DNA from: an uncultured delta proteobacterium
GTDB lineage: Bacteria > Desulfobacterota > Desulfobacteria > Desulfobacterales > B30-G6
Length of the DNA stretch: 64,000 nucleotides
Assembly (NCBI GenBank): GCA_963848165.1
Contig: CAWKCS010000020.1
Location: 41,180 to 105,179, forward strand
Direction: 5' to 3'
A program made the position numbers and the translations under genes. Within the stretch, counting starts at the first letter, position 1. Each line of letters begins with the position of its first letter. The notes under the pieces are model-generated. The model searched no databases and was not told where the DNA came from. It was given only the letters and a program-made list of their open reading frames with translations. Below are positions 33,021 to 59,192 of this stretch, one piece after another.

Positions 33021-33096
33021 GGATGCTGGGAGGCTATAATGCTTGAAAGCTGTCATCCGCATTTAGCTATCAGCCACCCTCAAACCCTTCCTTTAC
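33021..33096. repeat. composite spacer (AGCT-containing segment plus CCACCCTCAAACCCTTCC tail) between the fusion HdrA and Sec-MvhD genes
   Basis: Read directly: GGATGCTGGGAGGCTATAATGCTTGAAAGCTGTCATCCGCATTTAGCTATCAGCCACCCTCAAACCCTTCC. Confidence 0.6.
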
Positions 33097-36000
33097 ACTG
33101 CCTCATTCATCGCAAATATCTGTGCGAAAATCTGATCGTTGTCAAACCCTTTCAGCTTGATGGCACCGGACCGGCAGGAAGCGACACAAAGACCGCAGCC
33201 TTTACACAGAACCGGATTGATCTTGGCTTTGCCTGCAAAGGGTCCTTCCTCGATAAGCGAGGGCGCCGAATAGGGGCAGATGGAAATGCAGACCTTACAG
33301 GAACTGCAATGCATGGGGACGGTTTCAGCTACGGCACCACTGGTATGAATGGTTTTGCGTGCCAGCAGCGTAACCGCTCTCGATGCTGCCGCTCTCCCCT
33401 GCACGATGGATTCGTCGATGGGTTTGGGATAATGGGCCAGACCACAGAGAAACACACCATCGGTTGAAAACTCCGAGGGACCCAGTTTGGCATGTCTTTC
33501 CACAAAAAAGCCGTCGTCGTTCAGCGGCACCTTGAAAAACTGCGCCAGGGCATCGCCCTTGTTTGGCACTACGGCAGACGCCAGTGTCAGCATGTCGGTG
33601 ACGATTTCCAGTTTTCGTTCCAGCACATGATCCATAACCGTGACGATCAGATCATCACCCTTTATCTCGACCTCGGGTTTGTTTTCCAGGGCGTAGCGGA
33701 TAAAAATAATACCTTTTTCGCGGGCTTCTCTGTAGATATACTCCCGCTCGCCATAGGTCCTGATATCCCGGTAGAGGACATAAACAGTCATTTCCGGGTT
33801 GACTTTTTTCAGTTCCAGCGCATTGTCGATGGCATGGGTACAGCAGACCCTGGAACAGTAAGGTCTTTCCGGCTCTCTTGAACCGACACACTGGATAAAA
33901 ACGGCCGAGGACATTTCCTTGAGCGATGGATCTTGATCCATAAATTTTCGATCGAGATCCAGACTTGTCAAAATTCTTGGGTCATCCCCATAATGATACT
34001 CAGCCGGTTTCAGGGCGGCAGCACCGGTGGCCACCACAGCCACGCCGTATTCCAGGTCCGTTGTGGTGTCTCCGGAAGTGAGGGTGGATTTGAAATTTCC
34101 CACGAACCCGTCTACATTGCTAAGCTCTGTATTCAGGTGCACGTGGACCTTGTCATCCCCCTGGATATCGGAAATGAGTTCCGACAGTTTTTTCTGCACA
34201 TCCTCGCCCGATATGGTTTTAAACAGATTCAGCGCCTGTCCGCCTAGAACATCGCTTTTTTCAATGATATGGGTCTCATAACCCTGCAAACCCAGTGTCT
34301 TGGCAGCACTCATGCCGGCGATGCCGCCGCCGATGACAACAGCTGTCTGGTTTACTTCCAGTTCGGCTTCCTCGAGTGGCTGCATCAGGGCGACTTTGGA
34401 GACCGCCATTCGCACAAGATCTTTGGCTTTTTCCGTGGCCAGATCAGGGTTGTTCTTATGAACCCAGGAGTCCTGATTGCGGATGTTGCACATTTCAAAA
34501 AGGTATTTATTCAGCCCGGCATTGATCAGGGTTTCCTGGAAAAGCGGTTCGTGGGTTTTTGGCGTACAGGCTGCCACCACAATCCTGTTCAAATTTTTCT
34601 GTTTGATGATCTGGGTTATGGTTTCCTGTGTGTCCTGGGCACAGGAGTAGAGGTTGTCCGTGAAATATTCCACATATGGGAGTGTCGCAGCATATTCGCT
34701 TACGGCCGGGACGTCCACAACGCCGGCGATATTGATGCCGCACCGGCAGACAAACACGCCGATTCGCGGTCGTTCCCCGAAGATGTTTGTTTCGGGAATG
34801 ATCTCCGGTATCTGTGTCCGGGTATTCCTGGCCGGGCTCAAGGCCGCACCGGCACTGGCCGCCGCGGCACTGGCATCGATAACCGACTGGGGAATGTCCT
34901 TGGGGCCCTGGAAGGCACCGCACACATAGATGCCTTTGCGCGATGTTTCCACCGGTTCAAACGTCTCGGTTTTACAAAAATTGCCCTCGGTCAGTTCGAT
35001 ACCCAGGTTCTGGGCCAGGGCAATGGTTTTGGGGTCTATCTGCAGCCCGATGGACAGTACGATCTGGTCGAAGGTTTCGGTTTCAAGACCACCGGACTCC
35101 GTAACATAACGGACGGAAAGATCATCGGATCCGTGTACCGGGTCAATGGAGTGGACCCGGCTGCGGACAAATCGCACACCGCTTTCTTTGGCCCTGTTGT
35201 AAAAGCGTTCAAAGTCCTTCCCATGGGTGCGCATGTCCATATAGAAAATGGTGCACTCGAGATCGTCTCCACTGTGCTCCTTGGCAATCACGGCTTCCTT
35301 GATGGCATACATACAGCAGACCGAGGAGCAGTAAGCATTGTCACAGCGGTTGAGATCTCTTGATCCGACGCACTGGAACCAGGCAATTTTTTTGGGCTCC
35401 TTATGGTCGGACATACGGACGAGGTGTCCACCGGTGGGGCCTGAGGCGGACAAAATGCGCTCCATTTCCATGGAGGTGATGACATTGGGGTGCTTGGCGT
35501 AGTTGTAGGAATCAAACTTGGAAGGGTCGAAGGGTTCAAATCCCGGTGCCAGGATAATCGATCCCACATTGAGCTCGACAATTTCATCTTCCATGGTGTA
35601 ATCGATGGCATCCACGCCACAGAATTCAGCACAGACTTTACAACCCCCGGTCTTGAAATGAACGCAGACATCCCGGTCGATTGCCGGTGTGTTAGGAACT
35701 GCCTGTGCATAGGGGACGTAGACCGGTTTGCGGCCCATTAACCCCATGTCATATTCCGATGGAATAGCCTTAACATTTTCCTTGGTTGTAATCAGATTTC
35801 TGACTCTGTCCAGCGTAATATGGCCGGTGGGGCAGACGGATGCACAGGCACCGCATGCCATGCAGATCTCTGTCTGGGTATGGAAGGGCGTGTCGACAGC
35901 GAACTCCAGGCCTCGTCCGGTCAGAGCGATGGCGCTGTTTCCCATCTTTTCGCAGATCCGGGTACAGAGCCCGCAGAGGATGCAGTCGTCATCCTCGGTT

Positions 36001-36350
36001 TTGAAGCGGGGCGCTTCGATACCGTATTTTTTTGCCAGATTCTTCAACAACGGTACTTCCGGGCATCTGGCATACAGCATTTCGACGATCAGTTTGCGTC
36101 CTTCGTGAACGGCCGGTGTATCCGTTTTGACTTCCATTCCTTCCCATATGGGATAGTTGCAGGCGGTCACGAACCGGGTTCTGCGTCCATCAAAGAGTTC
36201 CACCGTGCAGATTCGGCACATGCCGGCCGGTTCCAGGGCCTTGTGATGACAAAGCGTTGGGATGTCGACACCGAATTTTTCGGCTACCTGAAGGATATAT
36301 TGCCCTTCTTCTCCCTGTACTTTTTTCCCATTTAATTTGAAAGTGATCAT
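33093..36350 (-). CDS. fusion protein: NuoG/HydA-type N-terminus (2Fe-2S + 2x4Fe-4S) :: HdrA lacking its first ~120 residues :: complete second HdrA-like unit
   Basis: 1085 aa. Motifs in order: CHHKALEPAGMCRICTVEL; CILCGLCTRICE; CMACGACASVCPTG. Then AIPSEYDMGLMGRKPVYVPYAQAVP...VGSIILAPGFEPFDP...WFQCVGSRD...CCMYAIKEA. Then IGVFVCRCGINIAG...AVVIGGGIAGMSAAK...FIQCVGSRE...CCTHAI...CSSCKVCISICP...CKGCGLCVASC. Confidence 0.85.
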   Translation of the reverse strand: MITFKLNGKKVQGEEGQYILQVAEKFGVDIPTLCHHKALEPAGMCRICTVELFDGRRTRFVTACNYPIWEGMEVKTDTPAVHEGRKLIVEMLYARCPEVPLLKNLAKKYGIEAPRFKTEDDDCILCGLCTRICEKMGNSAIALTGRGLEFAVDTPFHTQTEICMACGACASVCPTGHITLDRVRNLITTKENVKAIPSEYDMGLMGRKPVYVPYAQAVPNTPAIDRDVCVHFKTGGCKVCAEFCGVDAIDYTMEDEIVELNVGSIILAPGFEPFDPSKFDSYNYAKHPNVITSMEMERILSASGPTGGHLVRMSDHKEPKKIAWFQCVGSRDLNRCDNAYCSSVCCMYAIKEAVIAKEHSGDDLECTIFYMDMRTHGKDFERFYNRAKESGVRFVRSRVHSIDPVHGSDDLSVRYVTESGGLETETFDQIVLSIGLQIDPKTIALAQNLGIELTEGNFCKTETFEPVETSRKGIYVCGAFQGPKDIPQSVIDASAAAASAGAALSPARNTRTQIPEIIPETNIFGERPRIGVFVCRCGINIAGVVDVPAVSEYAATLPYVEYFTDNLYSCAQDTQETITQIIKQKNLNRIVVAACTPKTHEPLFQETLINAGLNKYLFEMCNIRNQDSWVHKNNPDLATEKAKDLVRMAVSKVALMQPLEEAELEVNQTAVVIGGGIAGMSAAKTLGLQGYETHIIEKSDVLGGQALNLFKTISGEDVQKKLSELISDIQGDDKVHVHLNTELSNVDGFVGNFKSTLTSGDTTTDLEYGVAVVATGAAALKPAEYHYGDDPRILTSLDLDRKFMDQDPSLKEMSSAVFIQCVGSREPERPYCSRVCCTHAIDNALELKKVNPEMTVYVLYRDIRTYGEREYIYREAREKGIIFIRYALENKPEVEIKGDDLIVTVMDHVLERKLEIVTDMLTLASAVVPNKGDALAQFFKVPLNDDGFFVERHAKLGPSEFSTDGVFLCGLAHYPKPIDESIVQGRAAASRAVTLLARKTIHTSGAVAETVPMHCSSCKVCISICPYSAPSLIEEGPFAGKAKINPVLCKGCGLCVASCRSGAIKLKGFDNDQIFAQIFAMNEAV

Positions 36351-36373
36351 AACAAATAGGTTCCTTGTAAAAT

Positions 36374-38224
36374 CTATCGAATGGCTATTGCATTAAATTT
36401 GCACCCATCATAGCAGATACCGCACTTGATACATTTCTCCTGATCGATAAGATGTGTTTCTTTCTTTTTGCCGGACACAGCATCCTGGGGGCATTTTTTT
36501 GCGCACAGGGTGCAACCCGTACAGGCTTCCTCATCGATCTCATAGTGAAACAATGGTTTACAGACACCTGCAGGGCACTTTTTGTCTCTGATGTGGGCTT
36601 CGTATTCATCCCGGAAGAAGAGAATGTTGGTCAGCACGGGGTTAGGTGCGGACGTGCCGAGCCCGCAAAGGGAAAATTTCTGGAGCATGCTGCCCAGTTC
36701 TTCCAGAAGTTCGATGTCCCCCTCGCGGCCCTCCCCTTTGCAGATCCGCGTCAATACGGCAAGCATCTGCTTGAGCCCTTCCCTGCAGGGATTGCATTGG
36801 CCGCAGGATTCATCTTTCAGAAAATCGACAAAATATCGCGCCACATCGACCATGCAGGTGTCCTGGTCCATGACGATCATACCACCGGAGCCCATTATGG
36901 AGCCCACTTTAGACAGCTCGTCAAAGTCAACCGGGAGGTCCAGGAACTTTTCCGGAATACACCCGCCGGACGGCCCACCCGTCTGAACCGCCTTGAATTT
37001 TTTCTTCTTGGGAATGCCGCCGCCGATGTCGAATATGATCTGACGCAATGTCGTTCCCATGGGCACTTCCACCAGGCCGGTATTGGTGACCTTACCCACC
37101 AGGGAAAATATTTTGGTTCCTTTGCTTCTTTGGGTCCCGATGGCGGCGTACCAGTCTGCCCCCTTGCTGATAATAACAGGAACGTTGGCCCATGTTTCGA
37201 CATTGTTCAGGTTGGTAGGCCCTTGTCGAAAGCCTTTTTCTACCGTGTGCACGTACTTTGCCTTGGGCCGACCCGGTTTTCCTTCGAGGGAGGCCATCAA
37301 TGCTGTGGACTCGCCACAGACAAACGCACCGCCACCCCGGCTGATATGGATGTCGAAATCAAAGCCGGACCCAAGAATGTCGGTACCCAGAAATCCTTTT
37401 TCACGCGCCTTCTCGAGGGCGATGGTCAGGTTGGTAACGGCCAGCGGATATTCATGGCGGACATAAACATATCCTTCGTTGGATCCAATGGCAAAGGCGC
37501 CGATGATCATTCCTTCGATGACACTGTGGGGGTTTCCTTCGAGGATGCTGCGGTCCATGTAGGCTCCGGGATCGCCTTCGTCTGCATTGCAGATGACGTA
37601 CCGTGTACCTTTGTGTTTACGGCAGGTGGCCCATTTGATACCGGTCGGAAAACCACCGCCGCCACGGCCTCTGAGTCCGGAGGCTTTGATCTGGTCGATG
37701 ATGCTTTCCGGGGAAAGGTCAAACAGGGCTTTGGCAAGGGAGGCATAACCGCCAACAGCCAGATAGTGATCCAGGTTTGTGGGATCGATCAATCCATTGT
37801 TGCCGAAAATGATTCTTTCTTGCAGTTTATAGAATGGGATGTCGTGCTCATGGATGATTTTTTTCTTCGTGACTGGATCTTTGAATATCAGGCTGTTAAC
37901 CAGTTCACCCTTTTTCAGGGTTTTTTCGACGATCTCCTTTACATGGTCCACCCTCACCTGGGGGTAAAAGATCCTTTCAGGATGAATCACCATGATGGGA
38001 CCCTTTTCACAGAAACCGTGACAACCGGTAAGTCTGACTTCGACTTCATCCTGCATGCCCTGATCGGTCAGCTCCGCCACCAGCGCCTTATACACGTCGG
38101 CCGTTCCATAGGCGCCGCAGCCCGATCCTGCACAAAGGGAAACAAGCTTTCCGGGCTGCCGATCCTGTTCTTGCAGTTTTTTTCGATAGGTATCTAGCGC
38201 CTCTTTGTTTTTAAATCTTGCCAT
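36374..38224 (-). CDS. NuoF/HydB-like NADH-binding FMN/Fe-S subunit (with N-terminal 2Fe-2S thioredoxin-like and C-terminal 2x4Fe-4S domains)
   Basis: 616 aa with GLRGRGGGGFPTGIKW, CNADEGDPGAYMDR, ESCGQCNPCREG, CTGCTLCAKKCP and CIKCGICYDGC. Confidence 0.9.
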   Translation of the reverse strand: MARFKNKEALDTYRKKLQEQDRQPGKLVSLCAGSGCGAYGTADVYKALVAELTDQGMQDEVEVRLTGCHGFCEKGPIMVIHPERIFYPQVRVDHVKEIVEKTLKKGELVNSLIFKDPVTKKKIIHEHDIPFYKLQERIIFGNNGLIDPTNLDHYLAVGGYASLAKALFDLSPESIIDQIKASGLRGRGGGGFPTGIKWATCRKHKGTRYVICNADEGDPGAYMDRSILEGNPHSVIEGMIIGAFAIGSNEGYVYVRHEYPLAVTNLTIALEKAREKGFLGTDILGSGFDFDIHISRGGGAFVCGESTALMASLEGKPGRPKAKYVHTVEKGFRQGPTNLNNVETWANVPVIISKGADWYAAIGTQRSKGTKIFSLVGKVTNTGLVEVPMGTTLRQIIFDIGGGIPKKKKFKAVQTGGPSGGCIPEKFLDLPVDFDELSKVGSIMGSGGMIVMDQDTCMVDVARYFVDFLKDESCGQCNPCREGLKQMLAVLTRICKGEGREGDIELLEELGSMLQKFSLCGLGTSAPNPVLTNILFFRDEYEAHIRDKKCPAGVCKPLFHYEIDEEACTGCTLCAKKCPQDAVSGKKKETHLIDQEKCIKCGICYDGCKFNAIAIR

Positions 38225-38255: not shown

Positions 38256-38744
38256 TTAAGCTTCCTGCTGCTCGTATTTGTCTAAGATTTCCAATGCACG
38301 CGAACGATCAAGTCCGCCATGGGTATCCTTGTTTACCGTAATTACCGGGCCTGAGGCACAGCACCCGATGCAGCGGACGCCTTCCAGGGTGAAGAGTCCA
38401 TCGCTGCTGGTCTGCCCTTCGGCGATTTTCAGCCGTTCCTCCAGCGCCTCAGTAATTTTTTCAGCACCCCGGACATGGCATGCCGTTCCGGTACAGACAC
38501 TGACAATGTATTTTCCGCGCGGTTCAAGGCTGATGGTTTTGTAAAAAGTGGCGACACTGTAAACCAGACTTTCTTGTATCCCGAGACGTTCGACGAGCAG
38601 GGGAACCACTTCCGGCGGCACGTAATTGTAGATGTCGCTGATGTCCTGCATGATCATCAGGAGTGATTCTTTCTCTTTGCCGTAGTGGTCAATGATGGTG
38701 TTGATTTTATCCCAGTCTATCTCTGCTGAAGTCCTCATAATCAT
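38256..38744 (-). CDS. NuoE/HydC-like 2Fe-2S subunit
   Basis: 162 aa with VSVCTGTACHVRGAEKI...VRCIGCCASGPVITVN. Confidence 0.85.
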   Translation of the reverse strand: MIMRTSAEIDWDKINTIIDHYGKEKESLLMIMQDISDIYNYVPPEVVPLLVERLGIQESLVYSVATFYKTISLEPRGKYIVSVCTGTACHVRGAEKITEALEERLKIAEGQTSSDGLFTLEGVRCIGCCASGPVITVNKDTHGGLDRSRALEILDKYEQQEA

Positions 38745-43251: not shown

Positions 43252-44682
43252 AAACCTTGTCCTTTGCCAGGGGGAGCTTGATGGTAAAGGTCGTTCCATG
43301 CCCAAGCCTGCTTTCGGCCCCGATGGATCCGTTGTGTTGTTCGACGATGCCGTGGGTAATGGCCAGTCCGAGACCGCTGCCGTCACTCTTGGTTGTAAAG
43401 AACGGGTCAAAAATTTTTACCAGATTTTCTTCGGCAATACCTTCTCCGCTGTCGGCCACGGACACATGAATTTCACGGTTTTCAGGAACATACCGGGTAA
43501 GGACCCGCACATAACCACCGGCGGCGGTGGCCTCGATGGCGTTGAGTACGAGATTGATGAGGGATTGCTGAATCTGGCCCTTGTCCACGAGAACACGCGG
43601 CAAATTGGGACGCCAGGTCCTGTTCCACGGACACGTCCTTGAAGGCCGCCTGTTTTTTTGTCAGCAGGAGACTTTCCTTGACGATGTCGTTGAGATTGTG
43701 TTCTTTTTTGTCCGGTCTGGTCTGCCGGGCAAAATCGAGCAGGCTGGTGACAATCTTTCTGCATCTCAGGGTTTCTTTGGCAATGGTCTCCAATTCCAGG
43801 TACATGGGGTCTTCGGGTCGGGTCTCTTCCTGGAGCAGCATGGCTGTTGTCAAGATGGTGGTGAGGGGGTTGTTGATTTCGTGGGCGACACCCGCCGAAA
43901 GTCGCCCGATGGATGCCAGCTTTTCCTGCTGCATCATGCTCTTCTGAACGTTGATATCACCGGTGATGTCTCTGGATATCTCCACCACGCCCAGGATATC
44001 GCCGTCTTCGATAAGCGGATAGGTGGAGATGGAGTAGTAGATTTCCTTGTCGTCTTTGTCCAGATGAATGTGGGTGGTCTGGGATGGTTCGATGGTTTCC
44101 ATGGTTTTTAACAAGGGGCAGGGGTGCTTCTCCCCGGAGCATGGAAAGGACTGGCGATGGGTAATTTCGTAGCAGTATTTGCCCACCACTTCTTCTCTTT
44201 TGAGTCCCAGCCGGTTCAGGACGGTATTGTTGACGTCGATGATACGGTAGTCATGCCCGATGACCAGAACATCTTCCTGGATCAGTTCGTTGATCATTGT
44301 TTTGTACAGGGCGTTGGCTTCGTAGAGTTCCTGGCTGGTCTTTTTCTGCATGTTCGACACACGCGCGATTTCCCAGAAAAGCTGTGCGGTTCGAGTTGAT
44401 ATGGCGCGGACGTCCGGTCCCTTTTTTATTCAGGATGTCATAGATAATGTCTGTGTTGCCGGTGAGTTCGATGATAAGCTCGATATCGTCCCGGGAAAAC
44501 AGATCATTGTAGTCGGTGGTGGTGAAGAGACCCTTTTCTTTTGCAAGAAGCATACCCGGGGCATCGGTTTTCAGGTCTGCCACCGCAACGACCCTGGGGT
44601 GTATTTTTTCGAATTGGTGCTGATCGATGAGATTCAATAACTGGGCGCATTTTGTACCACCCCCGACGACGGCTATGTTCAT
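43241..44682 (-). CDS. sensor histidine kinase with N-terminal Rossmann-like domain, PAS, HisKA, HATPase; two apparent frameshifts (about 43607-43609 and 44419-44427)
   Basis: Three overlapping track ORFs tile one protein. First MNIAVVGGGTKCAQLL...ILNKKG | PDVRAISTRTAQLFWEIARVSNMQKK...PAS. Then H-box LSAGVAHEINNPL...VSVEQDLAS | NLPRVLVDKGQIQQSLINLVLNAIEA...DSGEGI...GSGLGL. Confidence 0.8.
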
Positions 44683-50107: not shown

Positions 50108-50114
50108 GAGCGGT

Positions 50115-53100
50115 TCACTGCTTTGGTTCAACGGGATAGACAGAGGAACCTGGTTGCCATGTGCTCTCAATGGCTGCATCGATCATGTCCAGCACCTGAT
50201 GATCGGCAAAGCCCTGGATCACGGAAGCACTGTTGGGGCATGCCGTGGCACAGTCGCCACATCCCTGGCACATGGCCGGGTTGACCACGATTTTCCCCAT
50301 GTCCGGATCCAGACGTCTTGCATGGTAAGGGCACGTATCGATACACCGTTCGCAAAGACTGCAGAGGCTGTGTCGAACCGAGGCGACGATTTTCCCGGCA
50401 GACAACTTTTCATGGGCGAGAATTCGTAATGCTCTTTGCGCGGCAGCGCCGGCGGTGGCGATGGTGTCCGGTATTGATCTGGGGGACAAGGCAATTCCGC
50501 AGCCAAAGACCCCTTCTTTGAGCGCGTCTACAGGGCGCCATTTGGATTCCGCTTCCAGAAAAAAACCGTCTTGATCCGCTTCCACGGCAAAGGCCTCCGC
50601 CAGGGTTGCCGGCAACTGCGGAACGATACCGGTGGCCAGAACCAGCAGATCGGCCTCTATCTCCAGAGGTCTATTCAGAATGGGATCTGTGACGGTAATT
50701 AAAAGGGGGGTATTCGCTTCCGTTGGAACGGTTACCCGGGGCGTGTTATCCAGGTCGTACTGGATAAAGATGACACCCGCCTTACGGGCTGCTGTGAAGT
50801 AGCTCTCGGTGAATCCAATGGTCATCATGTCACGGTAAAGAATGTAAACAGCTAACTGCGGGTTCGCTTTTTTCAGCTTTAAGGCGTGTTTCAACGATGT
50901 GGGGCAGCAGACCCGGCTGCAGTAATTCCTCGGTTCCTGCCTGGAATCCACACACTGAATCATCACCACGGAATCGAGTTTCTGCGGGTCGACATCACCC
51001 TGTACCAGACCCGATTCCAGTTCTTTCTGGGTCATGACGGCCTGACTGGTACCATAGCCATATGCACGGGTTGTGGCTTCGTTGCCGCCGGTTGCCAGAA
51101 TGGCGGTACCGTGTTGAATCGTTTCAATGGTTCCATCACCGCTTTCAATGGTTGTATAAAAATCACCCACTTCACCGAAAGCGGCCGTAATTTTTGTTTG
51201 CAGGTGGATATGCAGAAGCGGGTGCTTTTCTGCCGCCTGAGCGATTTGATGAAGATACGGCTCCAGAGAAAGCCCCTCAATGGTTTGCTGCAACCAGAGC
51301 AGGTTCCCTCCAAGTCTGTCACTTTGCTCCACAAGGTCCACAGGATACCCGTGATCCGCGATTGCCAGGGCGGCATGTATCCCGGCGATGCCGCCGCCGA
51401 CGACCAAGGCCCTTCTGGTGACAGGCAGCGAGGTTGTCGGTAGCGGATCCATGTTCTTTAACCGGGAAATGCCCATTTTTAAAGCTGATAGCTGATGGCT
51501 GATAGCAGATAACTGGTTTGTTTGGTTTTTGTTGTAAGCGAAGATCGGGGACATGATATCCACCACATCCATCATTTCGGCATCCAGATGAACCCGGCGG
51601 CTCAGCTCTCTCAATTTTCGGATGTAAAGATACGGATGGCATGCTCCTAGGAGGATTCGGTTGGGCTTGGAGGCTTCGATGATCCCGGTGAGTTCTTCCC
51701 ATCCTGTCGCCGTGCAGCATTGTCGGAGAAAAACGACCTTGTCCACACACGGATCCTGTTGGAGCTGGTGTGTCAATGCGTCGACGTCCAGGTGCTCCGA
51801 ATACTTGTTTCCACAATTGCAGACGGCTACAAGCATCTTCGGCGCTTCTCTTGAGACGTCCTGATTTGCCGGCTCAGAAAAAGATTCGTCTGAAAGACCG
51901 CCTCCCGCAGCATGAATGATCCGGGAGGCCTCCAGAGAAGCCGCAGATGCATACATCACGGATTCACTGATATCTTTGAGGCCTGAAAACGATCCGCCGG
52001 CCAGCACGCCCAATCGGTCGGTAGTCACCGGGGAAAGGGGTTCTGTCTGGATAAACCCCCAGGGATTCAGGGGTGCCTCGATCAGTTTTGATAATTCCTC
52101 GATACCACGGGCCGGGCGTTGTCCTACGGCCAGCACCACCAGATCGAAGGTTTCATTGTGGAGACGCCCATCGGTCTGGGCATATCGGATGAGCGGTTCT
52201 CCGGTCACGGCATCCGCTGTGATGGAATGGATGCGGGCCCTTTCAAATCGCACGCCGTGCTCCTGCTCTGCGCTGTCACGATAGCGCTGGAATGTTTTTC
52301 CGAAGGTGCGCATATCCATGTAAAAAATGGTGGTTTCAACGGGCGAGGGGTTCTTTTTTTTCACCAGCATGGCTTCCTTTATGGCGACCATGCAACAGAC
52401 GGAAGAGCAGTAATCTGCGTTGAACTGGACATCTCGAGAGCCGACACACTGTATCCAGGCGATCTTCTCAATTTTTTTACCATCATGGGGGCTCACCAGT
52501 CGGCCTTGTGTCGGCCCGGTGCCGCTCAGCATCCGTTCCAGTTCGAGACTGGTTATCACCCCGGGGGTTGTCCCGTAGCCGTATACATTTTTTGATTCGG
52601 CAGGGTCGAAATATGCCGTGCCACCAGAAAAAACGATGGCACCCACCTCAAGGTGTTGAATGTCACCGACTTCGATCTCCTCGTAAATCTGAACGATTTT
52701 CGCGATCATCCGTTCCGGATCAAATGGTTTCATCAGATAATCCTGGGCACCTATTTTCATGGCTTCCACGGCGGTTTCCACCGTGGCAAAAGCGGTCATC
52801 ATCAATACACACAGGTCCGGAAAATTTTCTTTTGCTTTCTTGAGGAGATCGACGCCATCCATTCCCGGCATCTTGATATCCGTCAACATGAGGTTAAACG
52901 ACGCCTTTGACAGCTTTTCCAGGGCCACGGATCCGGATTCAGCCACATCCACGAAGAAACCTTCTTCGTCCAGCCATTCCTTCAGGGAGTCGCGTACGAT
53001 CAGTTCGTCATCCACCACGAGGACACGAAACTCTTTCCGTTTCTCAAGTGACAGCTCGATGGCCTGGGTGGGACAAATCTTTTCGCATTCTCCACAGTGG

Positions 53101-53597
53101 TTGCAGGATGCAAGATCAATGATATAAGGGTTAGGGATCGTGTGGGGAACGGGCAGGTAGATTGCCTTGCGTGTTGTCAAGCCTTCATTGAACGTGTCGG
53201 GGATTTCCACCGGGCAAACCGCTTCACAGACGCCGCAGCCAACACATCGTTCGGGATCGACCCAGGTGGGCTTTTTACGCACGGATACCGAAAATTTGCC
53301 TGGTTCGCCGTCTATGGCCATGACTTCTGTGTTGAGAAGAATATCGATATTTTCGTGAAAAAGGCCCTTGCGTAGGCAGAACTGAGATGATTGGTCGCGT
53401 TTGACGAGGGGCAGCATCTTGCACATGCCGCAATGATTTGAGGGAAACTGATCGTCTAACTGGCTGAGAATTCCGCCCATATGCGGCTCACGATCGATGA
53501 GGGTAACACCGTAACCGGTTTCGGCCAGATCGAGTGCCGAGCGGATACCGCTGATGCCGGCGCCTACTACCAGCGCTTTACCCATTTTTTTACCCAT
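50115..53597 (-). CDS. tandem HdrA-like flavo-Fe-S protein with a complete receiver (REC) domain inserted in the first HdrA unit
   Basis: 1160 aa. ALVVGAGISGIRSALDL...FPSNHCGMCK...CVGCGVCEAVCPV...RKAIYLPVP...CNHCGECEKICPTQAIE. Then the REC segment: FRVLVVDDELIVRD...LMLTDIKMPGMDG...MMTAFATVETAVEAMKIGAQDYLMKPF. Then LEVGAIVFSGG...WIQCVGSRD...CCMVAIKEA. Then a second unit: LVAVCNCG...[15 protein letters not shown]...IQCVDSRQ...CSLCERCIDTCP...CQGCGDCATACP. Confidence 0.85.
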   Translation of the reverse strand: MGKKMGKALVVGAGISGIRSALDLAETGYGVTLIDREPHMGGILSQLDDQFPSNHCGMCKMLPLVKRDQSSQFCLRKGLFHENIDILLNTEVMAIDGEPGKFSVSVRKKPTWVDPERCVGCGVCEAVCPVEIPDTFNEGLTTRKAIYLPVPHTIPNPYIIDLASCNHCGECEKICPTQAIELSLEKRKEFRVLVVDDELIVRDSLKEWLDEEGFFVDVAESGSVALEKLSKASFNLMLTDIKMPGMDGVDLLKKAKENFPDLCVLMMTAFATVETAVEAMKIGAQDYLMKPFDPERMIAKIVQIYEEIEVGDIQHLEVGAIVFSGGTAYFDPAESKNVYGYGTTPGVITSLELERMLSGTGPTQGRLVSPHDGKKIEKIAWIQCVGSRDVQFNADYCSSVCCMVAIKEAMLVKKKNPSPVETTIFYMDMRTFGKTFQRYRDSAEQEHGVRFERARIHSITADAVTGEPLIRYAQTDGRLHNETFDLVVLAVGQRPARGIEELSKLIEAPLNPWGFIQTEPLSPVTTDRLGVLAGGSFSGLKDISESVMYASAASLEASRIIHAAGGGLSDESFSEPANQDVSREAPKMLVAVCNCGNKYSEHLDVDALTHQLQQDPCVDKVVFLRQCCTATGWEELTGIIEASKPNRILLGACHPYLYIRKLRELSRRVHLDAEMMDVVDIMSPIFAYNKNQTNQLSAISHQLSALKMGISRLKNMDPLPTTSLPVTRRALVVGGGIAGIHAALAIADHGYPVDLVEQSDRLGGNLLWLQQTIEGLSLEPYLHQIAQAAEKHPLLHIHLQTKITAAFGEVGDFYTTIESGDGTIETIQHGTAILATGGNEATTRAYGYGTSQAVMTQKELESGLVQGDVDPQKLDSVVMIQCVDSRQEPRNYCSRVCCPTSLKHALKLKKANPQLAVYILYRDMMTIGFTESYFTAARKAGVIFIQYDLDNTPRVTVPTEANTPLLITVTDPILNRPLEIEADLLVLATGIVPQLPATLAEAFAVEADQDGFFLEAESKWRPVDALKEGVFGCGIALSPRSIPDTIATAGAAAQRALRILAHEKLSAGKIVASVRHSLCSLCERCIDTCPYHARRLDPDMGKIVVNPAMCQGCGDCATACPNSASVIQGFADHQVLDMIDAAIESTWQPGSSVYPVEPKQ
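51481..51513. repeat. AGCT-type short-unit repeat inside the HdrA-REC coding region
   Basis: AAAGCTGATAGCTGATGGCTGATAGCAGATAAC encodes the linker ...QLSAISHQLSALK... between the two HdrA units. It has the same flavour as the intergenic AGCT palindromes. Confidence 0.6.
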
Positions 53598-53633
53598 GAT
53601 AGACCTCCTGGGAATTTGACGTTCGTCAAATTC

Positions 53634-53699
53634 GGCTCTTAGCTCTTGGCTGTTAGCATTTAGCGGCTACGAGCTACGAGCAAAGAGCTAACAGCTAAT
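53634..53699. repeat. AGCT-type palindromic spacer between the Fe-S subunit gene and the HdrA-REC gene
   Basis: GGCTCTTAGCTCTTGGCTGTTAGC...GCTACGAGCTACGAGCAAAGAGCTAACAGC. It is preceded by the tight palindrome GAATTTGACG-tt-CGTCAAATTC (53611-53632). Confidence 0.75.
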
Positions 53700-54840
53700 T
53701 GTTCAGTCCAACAATTTCAGTAAATTCATCTTCCTTGAATTCAGACAGGGGCGGTTTTTCTTCCAGACTTCTGCCGGCCTCGTAGTCGAATGCCTGCTGG
53801 GTTTTGTGTGCGATCGTGCGAAACAACGGCATGATCGCTATGTCGTTGGGGCAGGCATTGGTGCATTGTCCACATCCGACGCAGGCAGTGCTCATGTGTG
53901 CCAGGCGGGTGATGTGGTACAGCAACGTGTCCGTCGGCATTTTTACAGCCCCTTTTTTTCTGGCCCATTGCAGGTACTGAATGGGTTCGTGGTCGAAAAC
54001 ATCGGTCACGAAAACACACTCTCTGCAATAACAGACAGGGCATGCAACCCGACAATTGTAGCAGTTCACACAACCGGCCAGATAATCATTCAGTTTCTCA
54101 AGGCTGCCGATCTTGTCTCCGACGTCAGCGAACATATTGTCTCGAAATGTGGTCCTTTCCGAAATCAAGCGGTCGATTTCTTTCCTGCGCGATGCAGGTT
54201 CTTCTGCCGTTGCGAGATCGAGGTCTTCCAGGAGACGGCCTCCCTTGTCCGTGAGTGACTGGACCAGGATTTGCCGACCGATATCCACACCGAAAAAACC
54301 GATGCTGATGTCGGCACCTTCGGCTACGGGGAGTTCACAGGACCGACATGCCTGTGTCAGTTCAATGCCATCCATGTCGGCGCTCTTTCCGGAAAGCACC
54401 TGGGCGGCAAATGTATTCGTGGCCTCGTCCCCGTTTTCTCCTGACCAGTTCAGATAATCCCTGTTTCCTAATGCTCCCGGGCAGTCAATGCCGATGAGTA
54501 TCAACTCGTCCGTGCGCGCTTGCTTGAGTTTGACCAGTTCCACAAAGGCTCTGATTTCGCATGGTCGCATCACGGCTGCTATGTTTCCCCCCGAGGGTTT
54601 GCGTGTGAGCCTCGATACGATTTTGGCACTGTTCATTGGAAATGCCGGGGACAGGGGGTCCACACCGTTCAATTGGTCCGGATCCGTCAACAGGGTCGGC
54701 ATGACCATCTTTTTCGTTGGAACCCTCCAGGGAGCCAGGATGGCGCTGATGTCCTCCTTTTCCAGGATATTTTCGAACAGCACCCTGAGCGCACCAAGCA
54801 AATCCTGATCTTTAACGTCTATTTTGGCCGTTTTTATCAT
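53695..54840 (-). CDS. Fe-S subunit (FrhB-like N-domain plus CX2CX2CX3CPxCYC dicluster), paralog of 31550-32498
   Basis: 381 aa with MRPCEIRAFVELVKL...LIGIDCPG, CVNCYNCRVACPVCYCRECVF and CVGCGQCTNACPNDI. Confidence 0.6.
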   Translation of the reverse strand: MIKTAKIDVKDQDLLGALRVLFENILEKEDISAILAPWRVPTKKMVMPTLLTDPDQLNGVDPLSPAFPMNSAKIVSRLTRKPSGGNIAAVMRPCEIRAFVELVKLKQARTDELILIGIDCPGALGNRDYLNWSGENGDEATNTFAAQVLSGKSADMDGIELTQACRSCELPVAEGADISIGFFGVDIGRQILVQSLTDKGGRLLEDLDLATAEEPASRRKEIDRLISERTTFRDNMFADVGDKIGSLEKLNDYLAGCVNCYNCRVACPVCYCRECVFVTDVFDHEPIQYLQWARKKGAVKMPTDTLLYHITRLAHMSTACVGCGQCTNACPNDIAIMPLFRTIAHKTQQAFDYEAGRSLEEKPPLSEFKEDEFTEIVGLNN

Positions 54841-54865: not shown

Positions 54866-54975
54866 GTTGTCGGTTCTTAGCCTTGGCTTAGCTCTTGGCT
54901 CTTAGCCGGCTAACAGCTAAGAGCCAAGAGCTAAGACTTACCCTCGACCCTTCAACCCCTCCAACCCTTCCTCAC
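54866..54975. repeat. composite spacer: AGCT palindrome with a perfect 20-bp stem plus a C-rich CCCTCRAACCC tail
   Basis: CTTAGCTCTTGGCTCTTAGC (54887-54906) is the exact reverse complement of GCTAAGAGCCAAGAGCTAAG (54916-54935). It is followed by CCCTCGACCCTTCAACCCCTCCAACCCTTCC. Confidence 0.9.
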
Positions 54976-55397
54976 CCCACCCTCTGCAACCTGGCCTGGC
55001 TGGGTCCCAGGGCCTTGATCTGGGCCACAAGCTCCTGAAGGGTTTCGGCCAGCAGAACACCATCGCTGGCCGCTATCCATGTGAGCCTCAGTCGTTCAGG
55101 CTCAAATCCGAAACTGGGCAGGATCTCTTTCAGCAGCTTGATGCGCCGGCGGGCTTTGAAATTTCCATTGATGTAATGGCAGTCGCCGGGATTGCAGCCG
55201 CTCACAAGAACCCCATCAGCACCTTCCAGCAGTGCTTTGATGACATACTTGGGGTCCACCATTCCACTGCACATCACCCGGATGATTTTTATGTTCGGCG
55301 GATACGAGAGGCGCGATGTGCCGGCCAGGTCTGCCGCCGTATAGGTGCACCAGTTGCAGAAGAAGGCCAGGATGGTGGGTTCAAAATTGTCGTTCAT
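54972..55397 (-). CDS. MvhD-type subunit (Cys version)
   Basis: 141 aa with ILAFFCNWCTYTAADLAG...IRVMCSGMV...VLVSGCNPGDCHYINGN. Confidence 0.85.
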   Translation of the reverse strand: MNDNFEPTILAFFCNWCTYTAADLAGTSRLSYPPNIKIIRVMCSGMVDPKYVIKALLEGADGVLVSGCNPGDCHYINGNFKARRRIKLLKEILPSFGFEPERLRLTWIAASDGVLLAETLQELVAQIKALGPSQARLQRVG

Positions 55398-55409
55398 AAC
55401 GGATCTCCT

Positions 55410-55757: not shown

Positions 55758-55810
55758 TTAAAGATGTTGACGCGTAATAATTCATGACCAATTCTCATGC
55801 AGAGCATTGT

Positions 55811-58800
55811 CTACCCCGCCAATAGTCCTTCAATTTCAGAAAAAATCTGCTTGTCCGTAAAATGTCGCACCTTGGCTGCGCCGCTGGGACAGTATCCGGC
55901 ACAACTGCCGCACCCTTTACAGATGGCTTCGTTGACCTCGCTGATGCCTTTGCGTTCGTTGAATTCGATAGCCGTATAGGGGCAGAGGCTGATACACACC
56001 TGGCATCCGATACAGATATCCGGGTCGATGGTGGAGATCATCGGTGACACCGCCACCTGGCCGGAAGCGCTGAGTGAAAGTGCTTCGGCGGCGGCCCCTT
56101 TGGCCTGGGCAACGGTATCCGGAATATCTTTGGGCCCCTGGCAGGTGCCGGCCAGGAAGACGCCGCTCGTGGCGGTGGAGACGGGTTCGAGCTTGGGGTG
56201 TTCTTCCTGGTAGAAACCATCACTTCCTGTGGAAATACCGAAGATTCTGGCCACATCGTTGACATCGGGACGTGGCTCCATGGCCGTACACAGAATCACC
56301 ATTTCCACGGGAATTTTCATTAAACTGTCGGAGAGGGTGTCTTCTGCGGTCACCCACAGCATGTCGTCGACTTCTTCTACACGGGAGGCTTTGCCGCGGA
56401 TCATGCGAACACCTTCGCTCTGGACACGCTTATAGAATTCTTCATACCCTTTGCCGAAGCAGCGCATGTCGATATAGAAATTGTAGATCTGAGTTTCGTG
56501 GCCACATTTGTCCTTGAGAAGATGGGCGTACTTCAAGGCATACATGCAGCATGTGCGGGAACAGTACTCATGATGGTTGATATCACGACTGCCGATACAA
56601 TGCAGGATAGCCACGCTTTTGGGTGGTTCGGTGAATTTGAGACGATCGTCAGGGTCGCGTTTCAGAAGCCGGCCGCTTGTGGGTCCGGTGGCATTCGACA
56701 GGCGTTCGAATTCCAGATTGGTGAAGACGTTGGCATACCGGCCGTAGCCGTATTGTGTCATGGGGGTCGGATCAAGGGGATCGAAGCCCGTGGCAACAAT
56801 GATGGAACCCACATCGATTTCCTGTATTGTTTCCGTCATGTCATGATTGATGGCCTTTGCCTCACAGGCATCCACGCACAGTTTACATTCACAGCACCCG
56901 CCGCAATCCAGGCATCTGAGAGGCTTCCGCTCTTGCCGCTTCCTCTGAAAAATTATGATCGACCTCATGGAAGCTCTTCACGCGCTGTTGTGGGTCCAGT
57001 TGGGTGGATACGACGCGGGGGGTTGCCTCGACATCTTCGGGGACGGGCTTCCAGTTGTTTCCCGGTATTGAGTCAACATCCGCTTGCTCAAGGATTTGAC
57101 GGCGGTCTTTTTCCCTGAGATAGCGATGGATGGCCGCCACAGCCTTGTGGCCGGCGGCAACAGCCTCGATGACCGTTGCCGGTCCGGTGACGGCATCACC
57201 GGCGCCGAATACATGCGGGAGACTGGTCTGCATTGTTGCGGGATTGACCTTGATGGTATTTCGCGTGGTCAATTCCAGACCGGGTTCTTTTGTGGCCCAG
57301 GACACATCGATTTTTTGTCCGATGGCAGGAATGACGGCATCGCATGGTACGACATATTCGGAGCCCTTTACCGGCACGGGACGTCGGCGCCCGCTGGCAT
57401 CCGGAGGTCCGAGTTCCGTCTGGATGCAGGTACATCCGGTTACATGCCCATCCTTGCTCTGTATGCCCACAGGTGCCGTGAGAAAGGAGAGTTCAATGCC
57501 TTCCTCCCGGGCCCCGTTGATTTCTTCCTTGTAGGCAGGCATTTCCCGTTCGGAACGTCTGTAGACCACCGTGACATGTTCGGCCCCGAGACGTTTGGCT
57601 ACCCGGGCTGCGTCTATGGCTACATTTCCGCCGCCGATGACGATGACCTGCTTTCCCGGTGCTTTTCGACTTCCCAGGTTGATTTCCCTCAAAAACCCGA
57701 CGGCATCGATGACCTCTGCAGCCTGGTCTTCCCCCTGGATCTGCATCTGGAGGGAGCCGTGTGCCCCGATTCCCAGAAAAACAGCTGAAAATCCTTTTGA
57801 CTCAAGATCCGACAGGGACAGGTCCCGGCCGAAGCGTACATTCGTTTCAACGTCGATCCCGTGCTGAAGGAGATGTTGGATCTCATTGTCCAACAGCTTT
57901 GCCGGCAATCGATAATCGGGGATGCCCACACGGAGCATCCCTCCCAGTTGGTCGAGTGCTTCGAACAAAGTGATGCGGTAGCCTTTGAGTCTCAGGTAAT
58001 AGGCCACGGTGAGGCCGGCGGGTCCGGAACCGATGACGGCGATTTTTTCCGGCCGATCTTCGATCTCCGGAAGGGGCAGGTCGGTGAAATCCACCTGGTC
58101 GGCGGCAAAGCGTTTCAACTCACGGATGGCGACCGGGGTGTCCACATCGACCCGACGACAGGCTTTTTCACATGGTGCCGGACAGACCCGGCCAAGGGTC
58201 CCGGGGAGGGGTATCTTCTCCATGATCAGTTTCACGGCCTCCCGGTATTGCCCGGTTTTGATGAGGGCGATATAGCCCTGGACGTTCGTTCCCGCAGGAC
58301 ATGTCTGAACACAGGGAGCCCGATCATATTTATCGATGCAGTAGGTGATGGGAACGGCCTGGGGAAATGGCCGGTAAATTGCTCTTCTCATCTTGGTGCC
58401 CACATCCCATTCATTGGGGAAAGCAACGGGACACACTTTTTCACACTCGCCGCACCCGGTGCATTTCGGTTCGATATAACGTGCTTTACGGTGGACCTTT
58501 ACTTTGAAGTTGCCGATGAAGCCACTGACATCCACGATCTCACTGTAAGACAAAAGCTCGATGTTGGGCTCCTGCCCCACAGAGACCATTTTTGGTGTTC
58601 CGATGCAGGCCGCACAGTCCAGGGTTGGAAAGGTTTTGTCATACTGGAGCATGTGACCACCGATGGTGGGTGCCCTTTCAACCAGGTATACCTTGAAACC
58701 GGCCTTGGCGATATCGAGAGATGCCTGCATACCGGCGATGCCGCCGCCTACCACGAGCGTGTTTGTGCAGACAGGGAATTTTGCCGGTGTTAAATCCTGC

Positions 58801-59192
58801 TGGTGAACAACCCGCATAATGCCTGCACCGACCAGGATTTTGGCTTTTTGCGTTGCTGCTTCCTCCTCCAGGGTGACCCAGGAAACATGCTCCCGAACAC
58901 TGACCATGTGGAAGGCCTTGTAGGGGTTGAGGCCGGCGCGCTGGCAGGCAGCCCGAAAGGTTTTTTCATGCATCCGGGGAGAGCAGGATGCCACGACCAC
59001 GCGCGTGAGATGGTGGGACCGAATATCATTTTCAATCAATTCCTGACCCGGGTCGGAACACATGAACAGATAATCTCGTGATACAGCTACATTCGGGAGG
59101 GTCGCAACATAAGCGGCAACCTCTTCCACCCGGACACGGTAAGCGATATTGATGCCGCAGTGGCAGATATAGAATCCGATGCGTTCAGGCAT
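55811..59192 (-). CDS. HdrA-like protein with a GltD/NfnB-like NAD(P)H-FAD module inserted (HdrL-type); apparent frameshift around 56915-56930
   Basis: ORF 56889-59210: MPERIGFYICHCGINIA...[14 protein letters not shown]...FPTLDCAACI...CTGCGECEKVCPV...RRAIYRPFPQAVP. Then CPAGTNVQGYI...IAVIGSGPAGL...VIVIGGGNVAIDAAR...GAGDAVTG. ORF 55811-56968 carries the rest of HdrA: RCLDCGGCCECKLCVDAC...VGSIIVATGFDPLDP...LHCIGSRD...CCMYALKYA...CIGCQVCISLCP...CKGCGSCAGYCP. The two frames abut at ...EEAARAEA|. Confidence 0.8.

Follow-up and report, generated by a model that had tools for sequence, protein, structure and literature searches.

Three HdrA homologues of a Desulfobacterales gene cluster carry different modules at one inserted ferredoxin domain

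Introduction

HdrA modules form the bifurcating core of many anaerobic energy-conserving complexes, and the way in which they are connected to donors and acceptors is an active question. The present analysis concerns three HdrA homologues, paralogues A, B and C, encoded on the minus strand of a 64,000-nt stretch of a Desulfobacterales contig (the whole of which is called the window), each carrying a different module at the small ferredoxin domain that is inserted in the HdrA fold. The point of reference is canonical HdrA, known from the structures 5ODC, 8RVU and 7BKB, which combines a TrxR fold, the CVGSRD...CC motif and the flavin lysine with cluster domains at the N-terminus, in the insert and at the C-terminus. 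The electron route in methanogen HdrA leads from FAD to a cluster of the N-terminal domain, which is completed by Cys197 of the partner, then to the inserted ferredoxin and on to free ferredoxin. A lysine next to flavin N5 (K409 in 5ODC) marks the bifurcating flavin in the literature on HdrA and BamE.

Two designs encountered in the window, the HdrL design and the BamE-type fused HdrA dimer, are already known. BamE, a component of the class II benzoyl-CoA reductase of Geobacter metallireducens, joins two HdrA units in one chain; TrxR1 holds the bifurcating FAD (Lys280), and a Cys59-Cys62 pair is present. The insert and N-terminal clusters make up its low-potential branch, and clusters E3, E5 and E6 lead towards the low-potential acceptor, accompanied by large conformational changes. 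In HdrL of Desulfobacterium autotrophicum and Syntrophobacter fumaroxidans, as well as in HdrA9-11 of ANME-1 archaea, a GltD/NfnB-like module interrupts the inserted ferredoxin, as it does in paralogue C. Enzymes of the Bfu (HydABC-type) group, comprising HydABC, NfnABC and StnABC, provide a further comparison.

Response regulators with enzymatic output domains, such as CheB and PleD, form a separate class of known proteins relevant to paralogue B. Taken together, the evidence presented here indicates that A, B and C are probably three old and separately conserved members of the HdrA superfamily rather than recent copies, and that their modules attach to the inserted ferredoxin as a peripheral port of the low-potential branch.

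Results

Three positions on one inserted domain

A sequence-only reading of this DNA had recognised three HdrA homologues, and all three, encoded on the minus strand, indeed match solved HdrA structures strongly (phmmer E-values of 7e-155 for A, ~3e-117 for B and ~1e-205 for the repaired C). They are encoded as follows.

33093-36350, minus strand: paralogue A, a NuoG-like N-terminus with a fused HdrA dimer, 1085 aa (phmmer to 5ODC_A, three blocks)
50115-53597, minus strand: paralogue B, a fused HdrA dimer with an embedded receiver (REC) domain, 1160 aa (alignment to HdrA structures)
55811-59192, minus strand, ATG at 59192: paralogue C, HdrL-type, repaired model of 1126 aa (DNA reading, three-frame translation)

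The paralogues were mapped by BLASTP onto HdrA of M. thermolithotrophicus (5ODC_A), whose 647 residues were rebuilt from printed alignments; Cys197, 246, 293, 296, 299 and 303 of the rebuilt chain stand at the expected positions. As the TrxR domain occupies residues 145-236 and 315-567 (5ODC numbering), the inserted ferredoxin (insFd) corresponds to ~237-314, or 77 residues. Paralogue A joins HdrA at the N-edge of this domain, at or before Cys246; C is broken in its middle, between Lys290 and Cys293; and the REC domain of B lies at its C-edge, between ~313/314 and 319, exactly where the chain returns to the TrxR domain. The modules share this domain, but each is attached at a position of its own. 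The sequence-only reading had placed all three modules at a single inserted-ferredoxin site and had proposed alignment with canonical HdrA as the check: the alignment retains the shared 77-residue domain and separates the site into three (246, 290/293 and 313-319).

Paralogues A and B each consist of two HdrA units fused in one chain, and the two proteins are collinear, with 34% identity over 1032 columns. Unit 1 comprises insFd and the remainder of the TrxR domain, in B also the FAD-binding N-segment, and unit 2 an N-terminal Cys domain, an insert-free TrxR domain and a C-terminal ferredoxin. The modules of A and B both sit on unit 1. The motif CVGSRD-x(n)-C-x3-CC is present in all five HdrA units of A, B and C, and NCBIfam HdrA models match the paralogues below their equivalog cut-offs.

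Families and core phylogeny

The best database matches of the three proteins come from metagenome-assembled genomes and isolates of Desulfobacterales or Thermodesulfobacteriota; isolates with these architectures include Desulfonema magnum, Desulfospira joergensenii and Desulfatitalea alkaliphila. Within the top 120 matches of each protein, the A family keeps a length of 1082-1092 aa at 76-97% identity (Desulfosarcina and Desulfatitalea included), the B family 1129-1172 aa at 59-92%, all with PF00072 (Desulfonema magnum and an Olavius symbiont included), and the C family its full length at 75-96% (Desulfospira included). The paralogues share only 29-46% identity with one another in the common core, and C is 49% identical to methanogen HdrA versus 31-39% to the units of A and B.

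When the TrxR region common to all units (226 columns) was compared in 46 sequences by neighbour-joining with 200 bootstraps, every unit family was monophyletic. Unit 1 of A pairs with unit 1 of B, and unit 2 with unit 2, at 100% bootstrap each, whereas the two units of A, like the two units of B, group together at 0%. The dimer fusion therefore predates the split between A and B. The earlier suggestion that the lineage diversifies by swapping modules after duplication is not supported by these data: the families are conserved at 59-97% and the paralogues at 29-46%, the A/B fusion is ancestral, C stands nearer to methanogen HdrA, and the core phylogeny that had been proposed for duplication followed by insertion pairs the units of A and B instead.

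An insertion hotspot in the fused-dimer branch

Relatives were surveyed by scoring B against 1.84 billion cluster representatives and classifying the best 150 (50%-identity clusters) by local BLAST of module queries and by Pfam. Being seeded with B, the survey covers the fused-dimer branch, not all HdrAs; interval counts refer to 126-132 representatives, and class counts exclude fragments. The unit-1 interval that holds insFd, from the N-terminal TrxR segment to the TrxR remainder, receives 31 of the 36 insertions longer than 60 aa and also 10 deletions (median length 84 aa, standard deviation 170). The other insertions of this size are found in the N-terminal extension (1), at the equivalent site of unit 2 (1), before the C-terminal ferredoxin (1) and in the C-terminal extension (2), with none at the unit junction. 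The unit-1 insFd is a real insertion hotspot in this branch, and the earlier statement that the region tolerates domain insertion is borne out. The classes were represented as follows.

Plain fused dimer, ~1000 aa: 85 clusters
Full GltD cassette inside the unit-1 insFd, ~1500 aa: 16 clusters
REC after insFd: 10 clusters
insFd wholly lost: 10 clusters
Reduced GltD cassette: 8 clusters
Start at insFd, FAD segment lost as in A: 5 clusters
Extra poly-ferredoxin: 2 clusters

In a 124-taxon neighbour-joining tree, computed without bootstrap, the REC proteins form one clade (13, with three REC-less members inside); forms with GltD or without the insert are dispersed over the tree.

Paralogue A: a NuoG-like N-terminus sharing a ferredoxin motif with HdrA

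35952-36350, minus strand: A aa 1-133, [2Fe-2S] Fer2_4 domain, degenerate His-cluster linker and first NuoG-type motif CILCGLCTRIC (Pfam Fer2_4, E=3.6e-17)
35829-35864, minus strand: A aa 163-174, CMACGACASVCP, seam motif (aligns to 9MQX_A/HydA and to HdrA from Cys246)
35619-35765, minus strand: A aa 196-244, HdrA insert loop IPSEYDMG...RKPVYVPYAQAVP...ID and motif 2, C-x7-C-x2-C-x3-C (phmmer; Cys invariant)
34836-35576, minus strand: A unit 1 TrxR remainder, aa 259-505 (domain mapping, motif searches)
33108-34775, minus strand: A unit 2, aa 526-1081 (alignment to HdrA, family conservation)

BLASTP aligns A with 5ODC in three blocks, A163-505 to 246-566, A528-754 to 4-231 and A765-1081 to 318-649. 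Residues 18-179 align to the 247-aa NuoG-like chain 9MQX_A (E=1e-38), and the two share both CxxCxxCxxxC(P) motifs as well as a degenerate His-cluster region; residues 1-133 correspond to 9MQX_A 21-184, and their cysteines are invariant in 121 of 121 sequences. The motif at aa 163-174 (CxxCxxCxxxCP) is the last of the NuoG-like module and doubles as motif 1 of the HdrA insFd; since it aligns to both, the seam of A is a shared ferredoxin motif. The unit-1 FAD segment (5ODC 145-236, Cys197 included) is gone, and A is an N-terminal replacement, not an insertion. Of the claim that A is split and joined to a NuoG-type module, the NuoG-like N-terminus (Fer2_4, 9MQX_A) thus stands and the insertion does not. 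Similarly, the proposed junction near 35765 (aa 195) coincides with the start of the phmmer alignment to HdrA (A196, residue 260 of 5ODC), and a clean break there was rejected: with aa 18-179 aligned to 9MQX_A and aa 163 onwards to HdrA, the seam extends over aa 163-195.

Unit 1 of A keeps the CVGSRD...CC cluster motif and K351; a GxGxxG FAD-binding segment was found in it neither by domain mapping nor by motif searches. Unit 2 consists of an N-terminal Cys domain, a TrxR domain with GGG (G674/G675 invariant) and no inserted ferredoxin, and a C-terminal 2x[4Fe-4S] domain. Its flavin-lysine position is occupied by D/E842 in 121 of 121 sequences and by D842 in the window. An invariant Cys96 lies in the degenerate His-cluster region, where it has no obvious role. 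A NuoE-like and a NuoF-like gene precede A.

36374-38224, minus strand: NuoF-like gene, 616 aa, directly upstream of A (Pfam Complex1_51K, NADH_4Fe-4S, 2Fe-2S_thioredx)
38256-38744, minus strand: NuoE-like gene, upstream of the NuoF-like gene (Pfam 2Fe-2S_thioredx)

The NuoF-like protein carries 2Fe-2S_thioredx at aa 26-101 and Fer4 at aa 561-613 in addition to Complex1_51K and NADH_4Fe-4S, and matches 9MQX_B at E=8e-235 and HydB at ~1e-228 (HydB/NfnB/StnB chains, 1e-200 to 1e-235). At the domain level the NuoF-like and NuoE-like proteins and the N-terminus of A have the make-up of the Bfu group. The order NuoE-NuoF-A recurs in the orthologous locus L003, where the A operon comprises these three genes only. 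Assignment of A to a benzoyl-CoA reductase (Bam) cluster was considered and rejected, as no gene for a tungsten AOR-type BamB, for BamC or for an HdrD-like BamD was found among the scanned window open reading frames (ORFs) and the L003 operon is limited to NuoE-NuoF-A.

Among the surveyed cluster representatives, P0442 (1218 aa) is a fused-dimer HdrA that retains the unit-1 FAD segment. Its insert holds extra ferredoxin motifs, among them a pair of NuoG type, CIRCGLC...GRDICQVCGACASVCP, and a motif 2 of the A form, C-x7-C-x2-C-x3-C. The protein may represent an intermediate on the way to the A architecture.

Paralogue B: a receiver domain between the inserted ferredoxin and the flavin domain

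53040-53579, minus strand: B unit 1 FAD-binding segment, aa 7-105, and complete insFd, aa 106-186 (alignment to 5ODC)
52683-53027, minus strand: B REC domain, aa 191-305 (Pfam Response_reg, PF00072, E=2e-30)
50163-52655, minus strand: B unit 1 TrxR remainder, aa 315-562 (K407), and unit 2, aa 582-1145 (alignment, domain mapping, motif searches)
47840-50179, minus strand: ORF of a HAMP-PAS-PAS-HisKA-HATPase histidine kinase, likely start ~50107 (Pfam)
46501-47661, minus strand: REC-HATPase protein (Pfam)

The REC domain that had been read at 52680-53033 was recovered at practically the same place. Residues 7-185 of B align to 5ODC 145-313, after which come the REC domain and then LEVGAIVF, equivalent to AEVGTIIC of 5ODC (319 onwards), so that the REC domain takes the place of the 5-residue return linker at the C-edge of insFd. 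The insFd itself has two CxxCxxCxxxCP motifs, and G12/G14/G17 and the Cys56/Cys59 pair are invariant in the unit-1 FAD segment, as is K407 in the TrxR remainder. In BamE this Cys pair corresponds to Cys59-Cys62, which is described as mobile. Unit 2 comprises the N-terminal domain, a TrxR domain without insert (G734-736 present) with K903, and the C-terminal ferredoxin.

The REC residues D196, D197, D240, T268 and K290 are invariant in 119 of 119 sequences, and the mean identity of the domain in the B family alignment is 74% versus 50-68% for unit 2. An AlphaFold2 model of B from 46 sequences (mean predicted local distance difference test, pLDDT, 82.4; predicted TM-score, pTM, 0.81) contains a canonical (beta-alpha)5 fold, b1a1...b5a5, at aa 191-308, with predicted linkers of ~4 residues from insFd to b1 and ~3 residues from helix 5 to the first TrxR strand. 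Foldseek places HdrA chains first for this model (8rvy_A, TM-score over the target, TMt, 0.74; ordered core 8rvu_a, TMt 0.89). The lowest confidence (pLDDT <50) is at aa 49-57, adjoining the Cys56/Cys59 pair, with Cys56 at the edge.

The likely start of the kinase (~50107) is 8 nt past the stop codon of B. The same pair of HAMP-PAS-PAS kinase and REC-HATPase protein follows the B orthologue, directly or past hdrCB, in four of five distant loci (L002, L004, L005 and L006), and in three of these four, where upstream DNA was recovered, B is also preceded by HdrL-MvhD-FdhB-like genes. A genome scan found the complete insFd-REC-TrxR junction in at least 16 species genomes, all of them Desulfobacterales among the matches listed. 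The searched literature yielded no work linking HdrA to a receiver domain, and a REC-bearing HdrA family with its own kinase seems not to have been described before. The invariant D-D-D-T-K set together with the adjacent PAS kinase hints that phosphorylation may control an electron-bifurcating enzyme.

Paralogue C: an HdrL-type protein with a permuted GltD cassette

56897-58328, minus strand: GltD/NfnB-like NAD(P)H-FAD cassette, fused aa 289-765 (Pfam Fer4_20, Pyr_redox_2; NCBIfam PRK12771/PRK12814, ~1e-150)

In the assembly, a +1 frameshift near 56917-56925 divides C between the ORFs 56889-59210 (773 aa) and 55811-56968. The 773-aa ORF ends with ...EEAARAEASQMPGLRRVL and a stop codon, and the +1 frame reads ...KPLRCLDCGGCCECKLCVDAC...; joining the frames between EAS and RCLDCGG gives 1126 aa. 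The context of the frameshift (56897-56968) is gcctctcagatgcc, with no homopolymer. Selenocysteine read-through was rejected as the cause of the split, as the TGA is followed directly by ATG TAA and the protein resumes in the +1 frame; so was a natural division into two genes, as 120 of the 120 top orthologues are single proteins, nearly all of exactly 1126 aa.

The repaired protein aligns to 5ODC with aa 4-288 (residues ~5-290) and aa 766-1124 (293-650), is 45-55% identical to solved methanogen HdrAs and has the VVGGGIAG dinucleotide site and the flavin lysine, K887. The cassette, with its motifs AVIGSGPAGL and IGGGNVAIDAAR, lies inside insFd, behind the RRAIYRPFPQAVP loop and directly ahead of cluster motif 2. 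The sequence-only reading had described a GltD/NfnB-like module of ~400 aa from 58325, directly before the ferredoxin; its start holds (58328), and the module proves to be longer (~477 aa) and to lie within the ferredoxin rather than before it.

The closest solved relatives of the cassette are GltD modules embedded in Bfu-type subunits, rather than NfnB: it matches 9BOV_A at 1e-126, NfnA (9N5U_A) at 8e-125 and StnC (8OH5_C) at 5e-112, against 2e-86 for NfnB (4YLF_B). Pfam Fer4_20 matches only from profile position 29, and the last 35-40 residues of the cassette (LDPQQRVKSFHEVDHNFSEEAARAEASRCLDCG) align to the canonical GltD N-terminus (7MFM_I 18-55, E=2.5e-4), more weakly to NfnI (5JCA_L 18-57) and NfnB (4YLF_B 12-51), and also to the C-terminal end of the GltD module in NfnA, 9BOV and StnC. 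Because the canonical N-terminal segment ends the cassette, the latter is circularly permuted and departs from the canonical GltD/NfnB order of two-cluster domain, FAD domain and NAD(P)H Rossmann domain. By sequence, C would work like a GltD module, and its form is that of Bfu-type NfnA/StnC. The two ends jointly carry the Cys motifs of one GltD cluster site; if they meet there, as seems likely, this would explain how the cassette could be accommodated in loops of two host proteins that are unrelated to each other. Residue for residue, C and two fused-dimer proteins, P0398 and P0396, have the same GltD seam (...PFPQAxP..I.K..PC..CPAG... at one end and ...EA.RCL.C.GC.(D/E)C..CV..C...HDM at the other).

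Gene neighbourhood

The region of 29.4-62.1 kb is occupied by consecutive minus-strand redox and signalling genes. In the order of transcription these are REC, HdrF-like, C, MvhD, FdhB-like, B, the HAMP-PAS-PAS kinase, REC-HATPase and further regulators (among them an NtrC-type and a double-REC protein), followed by NuoE-like, NuoF-like, A, a frameshifted FdhB-like gene and an AsrA/AsrB-like pair.

59185-61512, minus strand: membrane HdrF-like protein, upstream of C (Pfam CCG, Fer4_8, Nitrate_red_gam; NCBIfam qmoC, 1e-63)
54972-55397, minus strand: MvhD-like gene, between C and B (Pfam FlpD, E=3e-53)
53695-54840, minus strand: FdhB-like FeS protein gene, 381 aa, between C and B (Pfam FrhB_FdhB_C)

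The HdrF-like protein combines a QmoC-like N-half with an HdrC/HdrB-like CCG half, and its gene holds the same position upstream of C in L002 and L005. The order of the MvhD-like and FdhB-like genes between C and B is identical in L002, L005 and L006, and hdrC/hdrB adjoin the B orthologue, before or after it, in L001, L002 and L006.

At least four genes of the window, C and at least three others, are split by frameshifts, which are most simply read as the mark of an assembly prone to indels. Downstream of A, the FdhB-like FeS gene (31550-32498) is divided into the ORFs 32007-32498 and 31550-32119 at a/g homopolymer runs near 32100-32120, and its product resembles the 381-aa FdhB-like protein of 53695-54840. 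A PAS histidine kinase at 43482-44682 appears frameshifted (ORFs 44251-44682 and 43482-44360), with the C-terminus out of frame; the ORF of the NtrC-type regulator (41821-43410) has a spurious N-terminal extension overlapping its end. The stand-alone REC upstream of the HdrF-like gene (61838-62110) has its C-terminal half out of frame and an Asn at the phospho-acceptor position (IILNMMMPG), and an intact REC of ~140 aa occupies this position in L002 and L005.

The double-REC protein (39459-41123, 554 aa) has a REC domain at each end and, between them, two repeats of ~190 aa, each with the Cys-rich motif GFCE(M/T)GNMVCDIFKKLGATCKAGTKTxxCPQLAKK. Pfam matches nothing in it outside the REC domains, and the middle part could be a metal- or redox-sensing element. 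The AsrA/AsrB-like pair downstream of A (29408-31382; sulfhydrogenase beta/gamma-like, FlxAB-like) is missing from the A operon of L003. A large single-chain pyruvate:ferredoxin oxidoreductase is encoded nearby, at 18802-22353.

Discussion

The insFd domain is a peripheral excursion of the TrxR fold, and this is why modules would attach to it: as the presumed outer end of the low-potential electron branch, it would allow additions to exchange electrons or act there and leave the flavin core undisturbed. The earlier wording, in which the modules diversify the input to HdrA, needs to be qualified accordingly, as insFd belongs to the low-potential output side of both canonical HdrA and BamE. The domain maps, seams, conservation, synteny, relationships among the paralogues and clustering of insertions across the family are results of the analysis; the electron paths, phosphorylation and physiological substrates of A, B and C set out below are inferred from sequence.

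In B, unit 1 would provide the FAD site (K407), the Cys56/Cys59 pair and the only insFd, and unit 2 the N-terminal cluster domain and the C-terminal ferredoxin. Because this matches the BamE pattern (K407, C56/C59, single insFd), the REC domain can be understood as a phosphorylation-driven element in the neck region of the low-potential port: phosphorylation of D240 by the adjoining PAS kinase would shift the position or accessibility of insFd and thereby regulate low-potential electron flow. We tentatively propose, as one possibility, that the B family is a response regulator with an electron-bifurcating HdrA as its output domain, in which the PAS kinase phosphorylates Asp240 and so opens or closes the port for low-potential ferredoxin.

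In C, the cassette (two [4Fe-4S], FAD, NAD(P)H) would link NAD(P)H to the ferredoxin branch, in agreement with earlier proposals for HdrL, and C would work with MvhD, the FdhB-like protein and the membrane HdrF-like protein. In A, a NuoG/BamI-type [2Fe-2S] + 2x[4Fe-4S] module takes the place of the unit-1 FAD segment, and A, NuoE and NuoF together would form a HydBC/Bfu-type NADH (+ ferredoxin) module hard-wired into the insFd port. As the only flavin site of A, in unit 2, has D/E842 and not lysine, its HdrA part may be a non-bifurcating scaffold; bifurcation in the A complex, if any, would reside in the HydBC-like NuoEF part.

A different history would be that a single HdrA was duplicated recently in this lineage and that the copies then received or exchanged modules at one permissive site. 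Three paralogues within 26 kb, changes confined to one 77-residue domain and a common ancestor of A and B would all agree with it. It is nevertheless very unlikely: core identity between the paralogues (29-46%) compares with 59-97% between orthologues across Desulfobacterales genera, which retain the same length and architecture; C has its higher identity with archaeal HdrA (49%), not with A or B; three different positions are involved (246, 291 and 314); the neighbour-joining tree separates A/B, C and archaeal HdrA; and insertion of the C type was described earlier in Desulfobacterium (2009) and ANME-1 archaea. One may also suppose that there is no hotspot and that three unrelated fusions merely appear clustered because a mid-protein insert and its Cys motifs draw alignments. 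The three distinct points and the terminal nature of the A fusion speak for this, as do other variations of the family, e.g., C-terminal extensions and loss of the N-terminal domain of unit 2, but the accumulation of 31 of 36 insertions longer than 60 aa and 10 deletions in a single unit-1 interval, with four kinds of modules and a GltD seam that is residue-identical in single-HdrA and fused-dimer backgrounds, makes it improbable. Least credible of all is that the architectures result from mis-assembly or frameshift errors, of which the window has its share: A, B and the repaired C recur, unchanged in length, in isolate genomes and on hundreds of contigs of independent origin, and only the split of C is anomalous.

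As for the REC domain of B, it need not be a regulated switch. It could be a structural or dimerisation pseudo-receiver, or a phosphate sink tuning the cascade of the kinase and the sigma54 regulator, with the redox enzyme as a sensor; the cluster encodes many alternative phosphorylation partners (REC-HATPase, stand-alone REC, NtrC-type and double-REC proteins), and one B orthologue lacks an adjoining kinase. The invariance of the catalytic quintet in 119 of 119 sequences argues against a pseudo-receiver, and the very short modelled linkers into the flavin domain would suit mechanical coupling. Taken together, such roles appear rather unlikely; a phosphate sink may nevertheless apply.

Several points weigh against the reading of old, separate families with modules at a low-potential port. 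The proximity in space of residues 246, 291 and 314 is deduced from the domain being an insertion and from general knowledge of the ferredoxin fold, and pseudo-symmetry would probably put the C site opposite the A and B sites on insFd. The trees are neighbour-joining trees on 226-476 columns, the 124-taxon one without bootstrap. No equivalent of Cys197 was found in A, which keeps the N-terminal Cys domain, leaving the ligation of its cluster unexplained, and K351 is invariant in unit 1 of A despite the lack of an evident FAD site there. The wiring of A is not transferable from the Bam system, because BamI feeds the C-terminal ferredoxin of BamE and not the insert. No separate hdrC/hdrB genes adjoin A or B in the window (the gap 53597-53695 included), and in Desulfonema magnum B-hdrC-hdrB stands without an adjoining kinase.

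In the fused-dimer HdrA branch, one small peripheral domain takes up most of the domain-scale innovation. The circularly permuted GltD cassette is common to the Bfu and HdrA enzyme families, and a widespread Desulfobacterales family has an intact receiver at insFd next to a dedicated kinase. If the receiver does regulate electron flow, this would amount to a testable case of signal-controlled electron bifurcation, with two-component control acting after translation and not only on transcription, and would offer a design principle for engineering inputs into HdrA-type enzymes. The REC family with its kinase, the NuoG::HdrA seam, the link to Bfu through the permuted cassette and a quantified hotspot were not found in the searched literature.

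Compared with known systems, the C locus repeats the HdrL arrangement, as mvhD, an FdhB-like FeS gene and a further hdrA follow HdrL in Sfum_0819-0824 and C in the window. The gene of C is frameshifted in the window, and no selenocysteine codon was seen in C, unlike HdrL1/L3; the permuted Bfu-type form of the cassette and the presence of the same seam in fused-dimer HdrAs are added here. Canonical HdrA is a homodimer of complete subunits, whereas A and B split the parts asymmetrically between two fused units; the 'heterodimeric' and fused HdrAs of ANME are asymmetric as well, but in the opposite order.

With BamE, compared here by its description and not by sequence, A and B share two units per chain. 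B matches its unit 1 with insert and Cys pair and its unit 2 with N- and C-terminal cluster domains, whereas A has no segment with the unit-1 pair; some 85 of the nearest clusters are plain relatives, ~1000 aa long. B differs from BamE by its REC domain. A differs by the loss of the unit-1 FAD segment and by its covalent fusion, at the insert, to a NuoG-like protein; BamI, in contrast, docks on the BamE C-terminal ferredoxin. Chains A and B of 9MQX are the closest solved NuoG-like and NuoF-like chains to A and its NuoF partner, and the A system shares with the Bfu enzymes a NuoE-like subunit, a BfuA-type N-terminus and a NuoF-like subunit that begins with a thioredoxin-like [2Fe-2S] domain and ends with a 2x[4Fe-4S] domain. 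Its body is a fused HdrA dimer rather than a hydrogenase, formate dehydrogenase or GltD, and the site of the His-ligated cluster is degenerate. In NfnA/StnC of the Bfu group the GltD cassette is permuted as in C. Finally, B shares with regulators of the CheB/PleD type a complete receiver quintet and a neighbouring histidine kinase, but the receiver, N-terminal in those proteins, lies in B inside the iron-sulfur flavoenzyme that is its putative output.

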